The position numbers and the translations under genes are program-made. This document shows, one piece after another, positions 1 to 32,000 of a stretch of 32,000 nucleotides of DNA (its first letter is position 1; each line of letters starts with the position of its first letter). The stretch is from Candidatus Saccharimonadota bacterium (lineage in GTDB: Archaea; Nanohalarchaeota; Nanosalinia; Nanosalinales; Nanosalinaceae): positions 630,001-662,000 of the forward strand of contig CP012986.1 of the NCBI GenBank assembly GCA_001761425.1, in the 5' to 3' direction. Under the pieces are notes generated by a model. It did not search any database. It was not told the DNA's origin and saw only the letters and a list, made by a program, of their open reading frames with translations.

Positions 1-1
1 G

Positions 2-370
2 ATCGCTCTCTCCTCGGAAGGTGATGCACGCATAGCGATTGGAGTTCTACGTGCAGCGGCCAGGATGGCTGAGGAAAGAGATAAGAAAGAGATTACCCGG
101 GATATGATACAGGAAGCAGTTCCAGAAGCGAAGGACAACAACAAGAAGAAAAACGAAGAGAAACTGAACAACCACCAGGAGAAACTGTACGAAATAGTAA
201 ACGAGGAAGAAGAGATCCAGCCCGGCGATCTCTACGAAAAATACAGAGAAGCCATGGATGAACCGAAAAGCGACAGGATGCTCAGAAAATACCTTCAGAA
301 AATGGATCACTACAACCTGATAGAAGCCGAAGGAGAAGGTCGCTGGCGAAAATATCGGTCAGTGGAATGA
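2..370 (+). CDS. Orc1/Cdc6-family replication initiator, C-terminal part (5' end lies outside the window)
   Basis: The frame is open from the window edge. The translation IALSSEGDARIAIGVLRAAARMAEE carries the GDAR-type lid motif of Orc1/Cdc6 AAA+ proteins. A winged-helix-like tail follows (LYEKYREAM...RMLRKYLQKMDHYNLIEAEGEGRWRKY). The ORF track shows only the internal-Met version 65..370. Confidence 0.7.
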   Translation: MALSSEGDARIAIGVLRAAARMAEERDKKEITRDMIQEAVPEAKDNNKKKNEEKLNNHQEKLYEIVNEEEEIQPGDLYEKYREAMDEPKSDRMLRKYLQKMDHYNLIEAEGEGRWRKYRSVE

Positions 371-777
371 AAAAAGGAAGCTACATACTCCTCATAGAAC
401 TGGAGGAAAAAGAAACAGTAAAAATAGGTCCTGGAAACCGGGAACTAGAGAAAGGATTCTACACCTACTTCGGCACTGCATTCGGACCCGGAGGCCTCAA
501 AAGAGTAGAAAGACACAGCAAACAGGCCTCAGGAGAAAAAAATGTAAAACACTGGCATATCGACTACCTGACAACCCTGGAAAAATCAAGGATGATCAAG
601 GCCGTGAAATTCCCGGAGAAAGACCTTGAATGCGAACTCGCATCTCAGGCACAAAACATGATAGAGGCCTTCGGATCCACAGACTGTAAATGCGGTTCAC
701 ACCTCGCATACTTCCATGAAAGAGAGGAAGGAGAGGCCCTTCTGGAGAAGATGAAAGCGAAATACCTTAATTCTTAA
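367..777 (+). CDS. GIY-YIG nuclease superfamily protein, DUF123 family
   Basis: KGSYILLIELEE...GFYTYFGTAFGPGGLKRVERH...HWHIDYL...ECELA...FGSTDCKCGSHLAYF matches the characteristic archaeal DUF123 pattern. The start overlaps the Orc1/Cdc6 stop as ATGA. Confidence 0.8.
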   Translation: MKKGSYILLIELEEKETVKIGPGNRELEKGFYTYFGTAFGPGGLKRVERHSKQASGEKNVKHWHIDYLTTLEKSRMIKAVKFPEKDLECELASQAQNMIEAFGSTDCKCGSHLAYFHEREEGEALLEKMKAKYLNS

Positions 778-802
778 ATCCTGAGACCTTTCCCTCTGTT
801 AA

Positions 803-943
803 GGGCTCTTAGTTCAGTCTGGCAGAACGCCTGCTTCGCAACACCACTTGCTTGAATCTAGGTGAAAGCTGGAGGTTAGAGAAGAACAAAGATCTTCAAA
901 GCGGAATAGCAGGAGGCCTCGGGTTCAAATCCCGAAGGGTCCA
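803..943 (+). tRNA. tRNA-Ala (anticodon CGC) with a ~67-nt intron at the canonical 37/38 position (about 841..907)
   Basis: Acceptor GGGCTCT/AGGGTCC with the G3:U70 alanine identity pair. D arm GTTC/GAAC, anticodon stem CCTGC/GCAGG, loop TTCGCA|A, T arm TCGGG-TTCAAAT-CCCGA, discriminator A. The exons sum to 74 nt, the same as the intronless tRNA-Ala at 15093. No CCA is encoded. Confidence 0.9.
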
Positions 944-1097
944 AATTTATTTCGTCCAGGATTTGATATCCTCCGAGAAGATTCTCTGATCTTCGGACGG
1001 GTTCAAATCATCGAAAATTTCCCTGAGAAATTTTCTGGAGATGCAGAAACTCTGCGAGTTTCGAATCCCGAAGAGTCCAAGTTTATTCCGTCCATGA
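918..1097 (+). repeat. Degenerate direct copies of the tRNA-Ala 3' end plus trailer (fossil att-like repeats)
   Basis: 921-961 GGGTTCAAATCCCGAAGGGTCCAAATTTATTTCGTCCAGGA is echoed at 1056-1097 GAGTTTCGAATCCCGAAGAGTCCAAGTTTATTCCGTCCATGA (about 35/41 identical). A third 12-nt exact piece CGGGTTCAAATC lies at 998-1009. Confidence 0.6.
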
Positions 1098-1109
1098 CTT
1101 TTCCTGGTT

Positions 1110-1469
1110 CTATGCAAGGTTTTCAGGCAATCTGTAGAACAGGTTTTTCCGCGGGTATGATTCGTTCGGCAGGTCCACATGTTTGACCTCTCTTTCAAGG
1201 AGTCCCTGTTCCACTGCTCCGTTCAACAGGTTTTCAAGCCGGTTCCAGTCACTTTCTCCAGCGATCTGTGCCGGTACCCCGCTGTATTCCCCGGTTTCTG
1301 CGTATTTTTCTCTAAGCTTTTTCATCGCGTCCAGAGTGTTGAACTCGTTTTCCTGTATATGACTGGAGTAAAGCCTGTCTCCTGAGTTGTAAAGGCCTCC
1401 AAGATCTTCTACCAGGTTATGTGCTGTATACTGTCCTGTATCTGCGTCCTGAGTTTCTGTGCCTGACAT
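1110..1469 (-). CDS. Hypothetical acidic protein (119 aa)
   Basis: Clean ORF with the acidic composition typical of this window. No family recognised. Confidence 0.5.
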   Translation of the reverse strand: MSGTETQDADTGQYTAHNLVEDLGGLYNSGDRLYSSHIQENEFNTLDAMKKLREKYAETGEYSGVPAQIAGESDWNRLENLLNGAVEQGLLEREVKHVDLPNESYPRKNLFYRLPENLA

Positions 1470-1623
1470 GGGAAAGTAGATATATACCTCACAGTTTAAA
1501 AAGTATTACGTCGTAATATCTTTTCTCTGCGTTCTACTTTACCGGGAAAACACAGGCCTTGATCTGGGAGGGGGATAGTTGATTTACAAAGGTTTTATTT
1601 AAGGCCTTACGGAAGTTAGATGT

Positions 1624-30013: not shown

Positions 30014-30042
30014 GATGCTTCTTCGAGCAAATACGATGTGTT

Positions 30043-30125
30043 TGCGGGGGAGAAGATTCGAACTCCTGAACCCCTACGGGACAGGATCCTAAGTCCTGCG
30101 CCTTTGACCACTTGGCTACCCCCGC
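30043..30125 (-). tRNA. tRNA-Leu (anticodon UAG) with a long variable arm
   Basis: The reverse complement is GCGGGGGTAGCCAAGTGGTCAAAGGCGCAGGACTTAGGATCCTGTCCCGTAGGGGTTCAGGAGTTCGAATCTTCTCCCCCGCA. Anticodon stem CAGGA/TCCTG with loop CTTAGGA. Variable stem CCC/GGG. T loop TTCGAAT. Confidence 0.95.
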
Positions 30126-30300
30126 AAGATTTTGATTGGAAAACTGTGTGTAGCGTGGTGAGTAAGGCCTTATACAGGCTTTCAAAACTCGGGTATGTTT
30201 GTTTTTTACAGTAAAGGTTTTTAATGGGCCTGTTTTCGTCTCAGTCTGTAGGTTTTCGGTGTCCGGGAAATGGATTTAAGTTTGGGTTCGAAGGAGTTAT

Positions 30301-30960
30301 TTGTCAGGTGTTATTTTGCTGAATTATCAAGATTTCGAGGTGTTCTGGGATGGTCATGCCTCTGTTAGAGTTGAGGATGAAGATTTTACAGTCGCTGTAG
30401 ACCCGTGTAGTAAGGTTGGAACCGGTTTTACGGCGGATATCGTTCTTTTGACTCACGGTGATACAGGTCATTTCGATCCTGAGGCCTTGGAACAGGTTAA
30501 GGGGCCTAGGACTGTTCTTGTTGCACCTGATTCTATGAGGGACGAGGATTTCCCTGTTAGAGATGTCGAGTTTATCTCTGAGGGTGAGCATCTGGATATT
30601 TACAGTGTTGAGATCGAAGCCGTACCGATGTTCAACGAGGATCATTCTAGAGACAGTGGTGTCGGCTACAGGTTCGTCATGAGAGATAAGGCCTTCTACG
30701 TGGCGGGGGACACCGGGCTTCAGGATGAGTTGAGGGAGCTTGAGAACCGTGTGAACGTTGCCTTTCTGCCTGTGGATGGTGTCTATACTATGGATGTTGA
30801 GGAGGCGATCAAGGCTGCTGTAAAGATCAAGCCAGATATTGCAGTGCCGTATCACTATGGAGAGCCTTTTTTCGAGGATTTAGAGGTTGATCTCCGGGGT
30901 TTTGAGGCTGAACTGGTTGAGAGGAATATCGGCGTTGAAGTCCTTGACCCGGAAAAATGA
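30301..30960 (+). CDS. MBL-fold metal-dependent hydrolase (UPF0173-like), copy 1
   Basis: VFWDGHASVRV...VDP...LLTHGDTGHFD...VPYHYG. No ATG is present. The start is TTG at 30301 or 30316, so it is uncertain. Confidence 0.7.
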   Translation: MSGVILLNYQDFEVFWDGHASVRVEDEDFTVAVDPCSKVGTGFTADIVLLTHGDTGHFDPEALEQVKGPRTVLVAPDSMRDEDFPVRDVEFISEGEHLDIYSVEIEAVPMFNEDHSRDSGVGYRFVMRDKAFYVAGDTGLQDELRELENRVNVAFLPVDGVYTMDVEEAIKAAVKIKPDIAVPYHYGEPFFEDLEVDLRGFEAELVERNIGVEVLDPEK

Positions 30961-30988
30961 TTAATGCTTCGAGGCCTAAAACTTTGAT

Positions 30989-31681
30989 GTGATATCTATG
31001 AGAGGTTCTCATGAATTTGAAACTGTAGAGGTCGACTGGATCGACCATGCGACGGTAAAACTTAAAGACAGCGACGGTCTGGTCGTCTACATTGACCCGT
31101 GGAGCGACGTATTTGATGGTGAACAGGAGAAGGCAGATGTCATAGTCTCGACGCACGATCACTTCGACCATTTCGACAGGGAAGCGATAAAGGCCTTGAA
31201 GCAGAAAGATACGGTCCTTATTCTTACAGAGGATTCGGAGGACGATGCACCGGAAGAGATGGAGACAAAAGTTATCAGCCCAGGAAATTCGGTAGAGGCG
31301 CACGGTCACAGCTTCAGAGGTGTAGAGGCCTACAACGTTGACAAGTTCAGGGAGCCTGATACGCCTTTCCACCCTAAAGGCCTGTGTACAGGAGTTATCT
31401 TTGAACTCGACGGCTTAAAGTTCTACCATGCTTCAGATACAGATCCTATCGAAGAGATGGAGAAGTTATCGGAGGAAAAAATCGATGTAGCCTTCATGCC
31501 TGCCGGTGGACACTACACCATGGATCAGGAGGAAGCTATCGAAGCAGTGAAGAAGGTGAGGCCTGGAAAAGTCGTTCCGATACATTACGGCTACGTAGAC
31601 GAGACCACATGTGATACAGAGAAATTTGAAGAAGACATAACAGAGGGGACGGATTCAGAGGCCTTCATACTCGAAAACTGA
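30989..31681 (+). CDS. MBL-fold metal-dependent hydrolase (UPF0173-like), copy 2
   Basis: VDWIDHATVKL...IDPW...VSTHDHFDHFD...VPIHYG. Collinear paralog of 30301..30960. The start is GTG 30989 or ATG 30998. Confidence 0.75.
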   Translation: MISMRGSHEFETVEVDWIDHATVKLKDSDGLVVYIDPWSDVFDGEQEKADVIVSTHDHFDHFDREAIKALKQKDTVLILTEDSEDDAPEEMETKVISPGNSVEAHGHSFRGVEAYNVDKFREPDTPFHPKGLCTGVIFELDGLKFYHASDTDPIEEMEKLSEEKIDVAFMPAGGHYTMDQEEAIEAVKKVRPGKVVPIHYGYVDETTCDTEKFEEDITEGTDSEAFILEN

Positions 31682-31699
31682 AGGCCTCTACTAATTTTT

Positions 31700-32000
31700 T
31701 TATTTTACTGTCACGCTTTTCGCCAGGTTTCTCGGTTTGTCCGGGTTATGCCCCAGCTCTACTGATGTCAGGTAAGCGATCATCTGGAAAGGTGCGACCT
31801 CTACGATCTCTTCAAGGCCTTTATCCGGTATCTCGATGAAGTACTCGAATGAGGAAATTTCATTCTTTCCGACTCCTATAAGATCAGCTCCTCTGGACCT
31901 TGCTTCCGCTGCGTTAGAAACTATCTCGTCGTACCCATTGTCCTTAAGGAAAGCGACTACAGGAGTACCCTCTTCTACGAGCGCGAGAGTACCGTGCTTG
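31700..32000 (-). CDS. glmS: Glutamine--fructose-6-phosphate aminotransferase (isomerising), C-terminal end (5' part outside the window)
   Basis: The reverse-strand translation ends ...FQMIAYLTSVELGHNPDKPRNLAKSVTVK*, the hallmark GlmS C-terminus (DxPRNLAKSVTV). It is absent from the ORF track because it is open at the window edge. Confidence 0.85.
   Translation of the reverse strand, partial: KHGTLALVEEGTPVVAFLKDNGYDEIVSNAAEARSRGADLIGVGKNEISSFEYFIEIPDKGLEEIVEVAPFQMIAYLTSVELGHNPDKPRNLAKSVTVK

Follow-up and report, generated by a model that had tools for sequence, protein, structure and literature searches.

The palindrome AGGCCT occurs exactly 140 times in a stretch of 32,000 bp from a nanohaloarchaeal genome (contig CP012986.1, positions 630,001 to 662,000; hereafter, the window), i.e., once every 229 bp, whereas base composition predicts 6.9 copies, giving a ratio of observed to expected copies (O/E) of 20. 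A reading made from the letters of the window alone (hereafter, the sequence-only reading) had estimated about 140 copies, one per roughly 230 bp, against 6–8 expected, and exact counting bears out both figures. The excess is real and independent of protein composition. It corresponds to a fixation bias towards AGGCCT of about 30–40-fold, which is lineage-specific and about equal in coding and non-coding DNA. Synonymous choices are nearly saturated with the word and amino-acid sequences are starting to change; the bias is weaker within about 60 bp of an existing site, and between close lineages it is on, off or reversed. The explanation that we favour, and to which we give an even chance, is that AGGCCT would be the archaeal counterpart of the highly iterated palindromes (HIPs) of cyanobacteria, tied to a self-tag set by a methyltransferase of StuI specificity, with site-bearing alleles being favoured.

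Abundance of AGGCCT and Null Models

AGGCCT ranks first among all hexamers in the window; the runner-up among palindromes, TTCGAA, has 20 copies. Shuffles that preserve dinucleotides (n = 100) contain 8.39 ± 2.95 copies of AGGCCT, with a maximum of 19 (z about 45, O/E 17). Models trained with the word masked predict between 6.6 (order 1) and 9.3 (order 2) copies per strand, i.e., an excess of 15–21-fold, the order-2 model giving an O/E of 15. Markov models fitted to the unmasked window give 2.1-fold at order 3 and 1.09-fold at order 4, the maximal order. The latter ratio was rejected as a test of the excess: AGGCCT accounts for 140 of the 161 AGGCC, 140 of the 170 GGCCT and 140 of the 213 GGCC in the window, so that a high-order model is fitted to the very signal under test and the argument is circular. 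The sequence-only reading had offered an excess of no more than 2–3-fold over a fourth- or fifth-order Markov expectation as grounds for abandoning its claim; that level was formally reached, but the test was mis-specified.

The density persists outside the window. Exact matching of its proteins puts the window at about 636.4–668.4 kb of JGI contig Ga0136257_100001 (1,125,078 bp). The source sequence within reach comprises the window and its flanks, 51 kb in all or 4.5% of the source contig, and holds 229 sites in 51.3 kb (4.46/kb), of which the left flank makes up 9.6 kb and the right flank 9.7 kb. AGGCCT is thus the top k-mer, a short palindrome, has an O/E well above 10 and is present at about 4,460 copies/Mb, as are HIPs at the level of sequence. 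A restriction site under avoidance has an O/E below 1, whereas AGGCCT is 20-fold in excess.

Coding DNA, Non-Coding DNA and the Imprint on Proteins

Gene calls were those recorded for the source contig, supplemented with open reading frames (ORFs) for the left third of the window. The sites lying wholly within genes number 110 and are distributed over frames 0, 1 and 2 as 22, 36 and 52, all three frames being used as the sequence-only reading had stated. Permutation of synonymous codons, with proteins and codon usage kept, yields 13.6 ± 3.5 coding sites (maximum 23) against the 110 real ones, in a null that includes the codons contributed by the AGGCCT sites themselves. The word can be placed in permissive peptides, i.e., R-P, [K/E/Q]-A-[L/F/Y/S/C/W], or x-G-L if the first codon is compatible. 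AGGCCT is carried by 110 of the 144 permissive positions in the window (76%; odds ratio about 31) and by 192 of 267 over the 51 kb.

Strictly non-coding DNA (3.9 kb) has 23 sites, i.e., 5.9/kb with an O/E of about 40, compared with 4.1/kb in coding DNA. The odds favouring AGGCCT are similar in the two compartments, about 31 in coding and about 40 in non-coding DNA. Spacers are therefore at least as dense as genes, as had been claimed, and the case of an excess confined to coding DNA and explained by codon or dipeptide usage, which would have spoken against the claim, was checked and does not apply, given the codon null and the richer non-coding DNA. Occurrence in all coding frames and in non-coding DNA, with codon usage providing no explanation, is likewise a property of HIPs.

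The bias has left a trace in proteins. Permissive peptides are present at 15.5–18.1 per 1000 codons in genomes hyper-enriched in AGGCCT (see below), at 6.8–10.9 in neutral or purged relatives, and at 9.4–11.5 in unrelated controls; in the hyper-enriched genomes they are about 1.6-fold up. Two dipeptides exceed expectation in enriched genomes only: R-P (1.4–1.9-fold) and G-L (1.2–1.5-fold). The higher number of permissive peptides in hyper-enriched genomes means that the pressure has altered protein sequences.

Three States of AGGCCT among Nanohaloarchaea

The host belongs to the Nanohaloarchaeota, in the DPANN archaea: its class II lysyl-tRNA synthetase (LysRS) is closest to those of Nanohaloarchaeota metagenome-assembled genomes (MAGs), at 60–86% identity, and the bacterial framing implied in the sequence-only reading was wrong. 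AGGCCT was compared in 16 nanohaloarchaeal loci and 70 unrelated loci, the latter having AGGCCT near 1-fold. Five loci are hyper-enriched, with 64–81% of permissive positions used: the window (20-fold), L214 (21-fold), L008 (26-fold), L002 (17-fold) and L212 (11-fold). One locus, L010, is intermediate (6-fold). Neutral are L207 (1.8-fold), L007 (2.2-fold) and the background of L003. Six loci (L004, L208, L005, L006, L009 and L209) are purged: combined, they have 3 sites in 95 kb (0.2-fold), with GGCC at 0.37-fold. The enriched, neutral and purged states are interleaved on the LysRS tree, which was built roughly by neighbour joining and includes two partial sequences.

Orthologous proteins show the same three states. 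In the LysRS gene, permissive positions are used in 7 of 12 cases in the window, 9 of 12 in L002 and 10 of 11 in L008, compared with 0 of 8 in L005 and 0 of 6 in L006; over all orthologous permissive peptides in L005, 0 of 69 are spelled AGGCCT. In an alignment with 10 nanohaloarchaeal orthologues, the G-G-L codons of motif 3 contain AGGCCT in enriched genomes, and AGGACT, CGGACT, GGGACT, AGGATT or AGGTCT in the others.

When the window is compared with L002, to which it has 72% nucleotide identity, AGGCCT stands in both genomes at 64% of sites, whereas the figure for control hexamers is 17%; where the amino acids are identical, 28 of 31 sites are kept, against 31% for controls. Conservation of sites between genomes above background, another property of HIPs, is thus present, at a divergence so saturated that retention and re-creation are indistinguishable. 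Two assemblies of the source sequence (Logan and JGI; SRR2630167) are identical and give no polymorphism signal, and a metagenome scan returned, among the matches listed, no relative closer than 79%.

Further sequences came to light in these comparisons. L001 (JBLGBK010000020.1), a 6.5-kb contig assigned to a MAG under the name Colwellia polaris, has a LysRS gene whose product is 83% identical to that of the window, and shares neighbouring genes with the window; its origin is almost certainly nanohaloarchaeal and its place in that MAG a binning error. Four IMG/VR contigs (L298, L379, L385 and L304) have a dispersed 6–9-fold excess of AGGCCT, which is the top hexamer in L379 and L385 (among the matches listed). 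Their proteins are without the acidic signature of halophiles, with a (D+E)/(K+R) ratio of about 1 compared with 1.5 in the window. Thus, milder AGGCCT enrichment exists elsewhere, in viral contigs without the halophile signature. Scans of viral contigs for clustered sites gave, among the matches listed, local tandem clusters or non-halophile contigs. A 6.6-kb circular contig (L093) is inovirus-like and unrelated.

Anatomy and Spacing of the Sites

The sites have a weak symmetric extension, T-N-R-AGGCCT-Y-N-A: position −1 is R in 76% of sites and position +1 is Y in 76%, with a preference for T at −3 and for A at +3. When the non-coding sites of four enriched genomes are pooled (n = 51), Y at +1 reaches 81% and A at +3 reaches 50%. 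The preference for R-AGGCCT-Y that the sequence-only reading had noticed is thus real and, being stronger in non-coding sites, is a property of the site and not of codons. No larger repeat unit is present; flanks beyond ±4 carry no information and the total information in the flanks is about 0.3 bit.

Single-mismatch neighbours, described earlier as several-fold rarer, have 11–25 copies each against 280 AGGCCT (both strands). Their O/E leans outward, being 1.5 for changes at the outer positions, 1.2 at the middle and 1.07 at the inner positions, and one-off variants in non-coding DNA are at 1.45 times expectation. The tetramer GGCC with neither the 5′ A nor the 3′ T is at 0.36-fold, half-sites are at 1.35-fold, and the full AGGCCT is at 21-fold.

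Depletion of GGCC outside the AGGCCT context (0.36–0.59-fold) is seen in the window, L002, L214 and L008. Other palindromes of the form NGGCCN are near absent (GGGCCC 0, TGGCCA 1, CGGCCG 2), and the tetramers CTAG (31), GCGC (24) and CGCG (25) are also rare; together, these counts suggest several restriction pressures. That AGGCCT is merely the exempt context of GGCC avoidance was rejected: with 140 sites it outnumbers all of the approximately 98 GGCC that would be expected, and it fills 76% of permissive codon contexts.

Spacing of the sites is more even than random, with a coefficient of variation (CV) of 0.80 compared with 0.99 ± 0.07 for random placement; such regularity is reached in only about 1 of 1000 random placements. 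Gaps shorter than 25 bp number 6, against about 18–24 expected. The word is spelled at 57% of the permissive positions that have another site within 60 bp and at 77% of those farther away (Mann–Whitney p = 5e-4, four genomes pooled). As usage drops near existing sites, the bias depends partly on local density, unlike a context-free mutational bias.

Probable Traces of Recombination

The window has one long stretch free of sites:

10041–11359 (no strand): sole long site-free stretch, a 1,325-bp gap covering the 5′ 0.9 kb of dapA (minus strand) and the dapA–lysS spacer

It contains three permissive peptide positions, all of them unused. dapA is the only gene closer to site-poor L003 (0.75–0.84 nucleotide identity) than to L002 (0.70–0.82), the neighbouring genes showing the reverse; because dapA alone is nearer to L003, the stretch is probably a recombinant import from a lineage without AGGCCT enrichment. 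In L003, 17 of the 20 sites fall in a 2.4-kb block at 10791–13221 (7/kb), and the remainder is neutral, with 3 sites in 15 kb. The ends of the block lie within lysS and a dapD-like gene, and inside it L002 is equally close to L003 and to the window. From their sequences, the block and the site-free stretch look like kilobase-scale exchanges between enriched and non-enriched lineages, a chimeric assembly being the alternative for L003. If the exchanges are real, then the ancestry of a stretch of DNA can be read from its AGGCCT density, and build-up of the word after import is slow.

Sites, Candidate Genes and Other Features of the Window

The start positions of the 140 sites are as follows:

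1–5 kb: 492, 524, 665, 914, 1393, 1554, 1602, 2049, 2190, 2268, 2389, 2481, 2748, 2996, 3335, 3449, 3572, 3780, 3816, 4388, 4663, 4840
5–11 kb: 5220, 5810, 5959, 6247, 6303, 6396, 6787, 7138, 7155, 7262, 7491, 7760, 8172, 8273, 8950, 9622, 9834, 9973, 10035
11–16 kb: 11360, 11490, 11558, 11743, 12080, 12246, 12648, 12811, 13459, 13478, 13568, 13703, 13916, 13978, 14055, 14519, 15075, 15259, 15897, 15980
16–20 kb: 16314, 16468, 16556, 16716, 16794, 17120, 17199, 17420, 17643, 17671, 18035, 18063, 18197, 18338, 18878, 18934, 19013, 19051, 19302, 19387, 19834, 19967
20–25 kb: 20095, 20161, 20559, 20852, 21112, 21321, 21471, 21662, 21989, 22043, 22091, 22606, 22747, 22866, 22880, 23037, 23206, 23465, 23789, 23953, 24170, 24281, 24805
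25–28 kb: 25050, 25189, 25878, 26034, 26064, 26142, 26388, 26495, 26637, 26755, 27324, 27384, 27551, 27589, 27924, 27933
28–32 kb: 28410, 28490, 28953, 29409, 29526, 29893, 29953, 30165, 30482, 30689, 30972, 31191, 31326, 31378, 31559, 31659, 31682, 31815

Features that carry sites of particular interest are:

11302–12747 (+ strand): lysS, class II lysyl-tRNA synthetase; seven sites, in all three frames; 7 of 12 permissive positions used
Site readings in lysS: 11743, R-P; 11360, 11558 and 12080, [E/Q]-A-[F/L/Y]; 11490, 12246 and 12648, x-G-L
1470–1623 (no strand): spacer between divergent genes, with two sites, 1554 and 1602
Further non-coding sites: 3572, 3780, 3816, 14055, 15075, 15259, 15897, 16314, 20161, 28490, 28953, 29893, 29953, 30165, 30972, 31682
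803–943 (+ strand): tRNA-Ala(CGC) with a 67-nt intron after position 38, detected by ARAGORN with introns allowed

For lysS, the codon readings made earlier were right, but two sites had been misplaced by a few bases (11369 and 11493 instead of 11360 and 11490); all spacer coordinates were correct to within 1 bp. The site at 914–919 lies where the variable loop of tRNA-Ala(CGC) meets the T-stem, the place that the sequence-only reading had given it and that ARAGORN with the intron option confirmed. This tRNA is undetected by default ARAGORN and by Rfam (both thresholds). As the intron at 38/39 hides the tRNA from default tools, intron-blind annotation under-counts the tRNAs of this genome. A 41-nt direct repeat (85% identical) is found at 924–964 and 1060–1100, the second copy being 136 bp downstream; the first consists of the T-loop and 3′ acceptor end of the tRNA and the 21 nt 3′ of it. 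The repeat looks like what is left of an att-site duplication, made by an element that had integrated at the 3′ end of the tRNA.

Several genes were considered as possible readers or writers of the word. The only methyltransferase in the window (21891–22493) belongs to the small-molecule or RNA class I S-adenosylmethionine (SAM) type, and was rejected as a DNA methyltransferase. A DUF123 protein (367–777), of a family which we take to belong to the GIY-YIG nuclease clan, has no solved homologue; it was rejected as a candidate nuclease, as its orthologues occur both in hyper-enriched L002 and in neutral L007 and the gene therefore does not track the trait. Its gene (+ strand; PF01986, E = 5e-28) overlaps by 4 nt with an Orc1/Cdc6 gene that ends at window position 370 (+ strand; L086 8997–10411), near which a replication origin may lie. 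To the left of the window by 3.2–8.5 kb (L086 1090–6398) are two adjacent genes in an AddAB-like arrangement, one for an 856-aa PD-(D/E)xK protein (Cas4-like) and one for a 913-aa UvrD/AddA/RecB-like helicase; the helicase scores far below all equivalog cut-offs. Such an arrangement is probably uncommon in archaea. This pair and the DUF123 gene are the only nuclease-like genes in the vicinity.

Other genes of the window are observations in their own right. Two LysRS genes lie 7.5 kb apart, that of class II (tRNA-synt_2) at 11302–12747 (+) and one of class I (tRNA-synt_1f) at 20284–21894 (+); both classes in one small genome are unusual. Around lysS (6895–14933) is a lysine/diaminopimelate (DAP) cluster, comprising asd, aspartate kinase, dapB and dapA (minus strand), then lysS, a lysA-type decarboxylase and a dapD-like acyltransferase, which is a notable biosynthetic capacity for a DPANN symbiont. 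A 119-aa protein encoded at 15912–16271 (−) matches the histone fold at a borderline level (PF00808, 20.9 bits, the cut-off being 21.4) and is conserved at 72–88% in L002, L005 and L007; it may be an extended archaeal histone. Two tandem paralogous genes for proteins of the metallo-beta-lactamase fold are present at 30301–30960 and 30998–31681 (+), encoding 219 and 227 aa.

Comparison with Known Systems

The sequence-only reading had likened AGGCCT to HIP1 (GCGATCGC), and the closest analogue is indeed HIP1: the three sequence-level properties of HIPs given above are all present. HIP1 and the alternative HIPs (GCsGC, rCCGGy) are short GC-rich palindromes and the top k-mers of their genomes, at 15–300-fold excess (Elhai 2015, PMC4390886; Xu et al. 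2018, PMC5861425). Most HIPs have densities of 500–2,500/Mb; the approximately 4,460/Mb of AGGCCT resembles the “higher” case of rCCGGy. Like AGGCCT, HIPs are found in genes in all frames and in intergenic DNA, are conserved between genomes, and are lost or replaced in a patchy manner among relatives. One-base deviations lean to the outer positions both in HIP1 (according to Elhai) and in AGGCCT (1.5, 1.2 and 1.07). There are also differences. HIP1 is an octamer and AGGCCT a hexamer; the host of HIPs is a cyanobacterium, whereas that of AGGCCT is a nanohaloarchaeon of the DPANN group. The inner CGATCG or GATC of HIP1 is a methyltransferase target, whereas the core GGCC of AGGCCT is at 0.36-fold outside the full word. 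Finally, AGGCCT, unlike HIPs, is purged by sister lineages, and its methyltransferase is only inferred.

Uptake signal sequences (USS) of Pasteurellaceae and DNA uptake sequences (DUS) of Neisseriaceae are similar in their genome-wide excess, explicable by drive, in their effect on proteins, in their even spacing and in their “dialects”; the USS/DUS side of this comparison reportedly goes back to Findlay and Redfield in 2009 and Maughan et al. in 2010. Even spacing and an effect on the proteome are present in AGGCCT (CV 0.80 compared with 0.99; permissive peptides about 1.6-fold). However, USS and DUS are asymmetric motifs of 9–12 nt, often in inverted pairs in terminators, at about 1/kb and with a known receptor and competence, whereas AGGCCT is a symmetric 6-mer at 4.5/kb. 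Methylated palindromes are a further comparison: CtsM/RAATTY in Campylobacter jejuni is a self-tag in transformation, and a study of Synechococcus PCC 7002 is said to have found the same of methylated HIP1. In such systems a palindrome of 6–8 bp marks self only when methylated, and this is the mechanism that we judge most likely for AGGCCT. Very short patch (VSP) repair with Dcm in E. coli is similar in that a methyltransferase target (CCWGG) is enriched via a repair bias, but the enrichment there is mild and comes with depletion of the T-variant, whereas AGGCCT is at 20-fold without such depletion.

StuI-type systems act on the same word, AGGCCT, in double-stranded DNA. Alcanivorax borkumensis has AGGCCT at about twice expectation, an estimate based on generally known genome size and composition. 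For this species, REBASE predicts an AGGCCT system, M.AboORF2079P with AboORF2079P; single-molecule real-time (SMRT) sequencing gives cytosine methylation on both strands at the second C (AgGCcT), and the genome contains 1,674 AGGCCT sites (PMC12128166). Genomes with active restriction-modification normally avoid their own sites, as the purged nanohaloarchaea do; the genome of the window is the opposite. Full-text literature searches returned no paper tying AGGCCT to nanohaloarchaea or to a genome-wide excess in archaea, and the Ca. Nanopetramus SG9 paper (Atacama halite; bioRxiv 10.1101/029934) has no mention of methylation, restriction or AGGCCT. What appears to be new here is a hexameric HIP-like word in DPANN archaea, with near-saturated codon contexts, an imprint on proteins and sister lineages that purge it.

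A Proposed Methylated Self-Tag and its Alternatives

Because the word and its flanks are symmetric, the agent would be a dimeric protein that reads double-stranded DNA. It would most likely be a methyltransferase that has StuI specificity and is confined to certain lineages, whether as an orphan enzyme or within a restriction-modification system. Methylated AGGCCT would mark DNA as “self” and be favoured in DNA exchange, recombination or repair, and site-bearing alleles would then spread, as has been proposed for HIP1 and uptake sequences. T:G-specific mismatch correction would have no part in this route, and the purged lineages would be exposed instead to a nuclease that cuts GGCC or AGGCCT. 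Several published results are consistent with such a mechanism. The frequency of a HIP follows the presence of its cognate methyltransferase (PMC4390886); HIP1 sites are conserved (PMC5861425); HIP1 raises transformation, in a way that depends on methylation, and has been put forward as an uptake tag (bioRxiv 10.64898/2026.06.24.733823); Dcm-like methyltransferases are active in nanohaloarchaea (PMC10266531); and an AGGCCT-specific methyltransferase exists in Alcanivorax (AgGCcT; PMC12128166).

Several points weigh against this explanation. A methyltransferase alone creates no sites, and the step from “marked” to “favoured” is taken by analogy with HIP1, the mechanism of which is itself unsettled. 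A 6-bp tag provides only about 10-fold discrimination from other DNA, and the 60-bp range of interference is below that predicted by a model of uptake fragments. The conservation with L002 does not separate retention from independent saturation, synonymous sites being saturated. No DNA methyltransferase was found in the 51 kb or in the loci of 10 relatives (motif scan of ORFs; Pfam, NCBIfam and PADLOC scans), and no AGGCCT-specific nuclease or uptake gene was found in the 51 kb, which represent 4.5% of the source contig.

The lead mechanism of the sequence-only reading was a VSP-type drive, in which a 5-methylcytosine (m5C) methyltransferase acts on AGGCCT and a Vsr-like T:G correction converts AGGTCT and AGGCTT into AGGCCT. 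It has the precedent of CCWGG in E. coli, and where relatives have another word at the aligned site it is most often a C-to-T variant, i.e., transitions at both C positions are frequent. However, it predicted that the deamination neighbours would be drained, and they are undepleted: AGGTCT/AGACCT has 24 copies against 23–24 expected (O/E 1.0–1.06) and AGGCTT/AAGCCT 20 against 17–20 (O/E 1.0–1.2), which argues against drive by T:G repair. At unused permissive positions, C-to-T variants are even over-represented, being 8 of the 19 single-mismatch cases; one-off variants in non-coding DNA are at 1.45 times expectation; the bias covers all six positions, of which the outer A and T are beyond the reach of T:G repair; and there is no Vsr-like gene within the 51 kb. 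Deamination of N4-methylcytosine (m4C) leaves no T:G mismatch. The Alcanivorax mark is on the second C, from a SMRT pipeline that scores N6-methyladenine (m6A) and m4C only (PMC12128166). We regard this drive as improbable, and the other proposals of the sequence-only reading, namely a tag for uptake or self-recognition and a site for chromosome organisation, fit the data better. More improbable still is a Chi-like signal, in which AGGCCT would be read by the AddAB/RecB-like helicase–nuclease pair left of the window, protecting own DNA and stimulating recombination. The gene pair is there, at L086 1090–6398, and the density is near that of short Chi such as AGCGG of B. subtilis, but known Chi are asymmetric, strand-biased in orientation and few-fold enriched, whereas AGGCCT and its flanks are symmetric; the helicase falls short of every equivalog cut-off, and nothing ties the pair to AGGCCT. 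That there is no special element, only composition, a by-product of codons and dipeptides, or copies of a small mobile repeat, is already refuted and has next to no probability. The maximal-order Markov ratio of 1.09 in its favour is circular; G-L and R-P are common dipeptides, but codon permutation leaves 13.6 sites against 110, non-coding enrichment exceeds coding enrichment, the uninformative flanks beyond ±4 reveal no larger unit, and the orthologues of relatives encode the same peptides without AGGCCT (0 of 69 in L005).

Two alternatives have a somewhat better standing, although both are unlikely. One, which we hold to be fairly unlikely, is direct selection on each site as the binding site of an abundant chromosomal protein (a nucleoid protein, or a replication or repair mark) without DNA exchange, as in the reading of HIP1 by Xu, Lawrence and Durand. 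Conservation of sites over saturated divergence, equal strength in coding and non-coding DNA and symmetric flanks are consistent with this, and even spacing with short-range redundancy fits the footprint of a protein. It would, however, require about 5,000 sites each to override the choice of codon or amino acid in a symbiont with small populations, no candidate protein has been identified, and close relatives do without AGGCCT or purge it, and therefore its function cannot be essential. The other, slightly less probable, is an uptake-sequence drive without methylation: an import receptor would prefer fragments with AGGCCT, and homologous recombination would spread the word, as for USS and DUS. 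The dispersed sites in all frames, the affected protein sequences, the spacing more even than random, the dialect-like differences between related lineages and the evidence for kilobase-scale recombination between hyper-enriched and other lineages would all be accounted for. Known uptake sequences, however, are asymmetric 9–12-mers, and a palindromic 6-mer with symmetric flanks resembles the site of a type II enzyme; no competence genes were seen within the 51 kb, interference over 60 bp is far below the size of typical uptake fragments, and the purging by sister lineages is left unexplained.

Implications

HIP1 has remained puzzling for 30 years, and all the HIP papers found are on cyanobacteria; a second independent case would be a natural comparative experiment. 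Enriched, neutral and purged relatives have genomes of 1 Mb with about 1,200 genes, and the genes that track the state should name the machinery more easily than in cyanobacteria. A DNA word of 6 bp is able to reshape a proteome measurably, and the density of AGGCCT is a built-in tracer of recombination between lineages. In practice, AGGCCT is also a simple signal for binning and contamination of nanohaloarchaeal MAGs.

Going further than the methylated self-tag, AGGCCT could be a switchable epigenetic “self” word: methylated AGGCCT would tag own DNA for exchange or repair, or for protection during scavenging of foreign DNA; sisters exposed to the nuclease would erase it; and the resulting “dialect” barrier would structure gene flow among co-occurring DPANN populations. 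This is possible, although we consider it doubtful. If it is true, the reach of the drive extends to about three quarters of compatible codon contexts and to about 1.5% of peptide positions, which it has rewritten, and the 2.4-kb site-rich tract of L003 and the site-free tract of the window are traces of gene flow. DPANN symbionts may have a layer of self/non-self DNA marking that has gone unrecognised.

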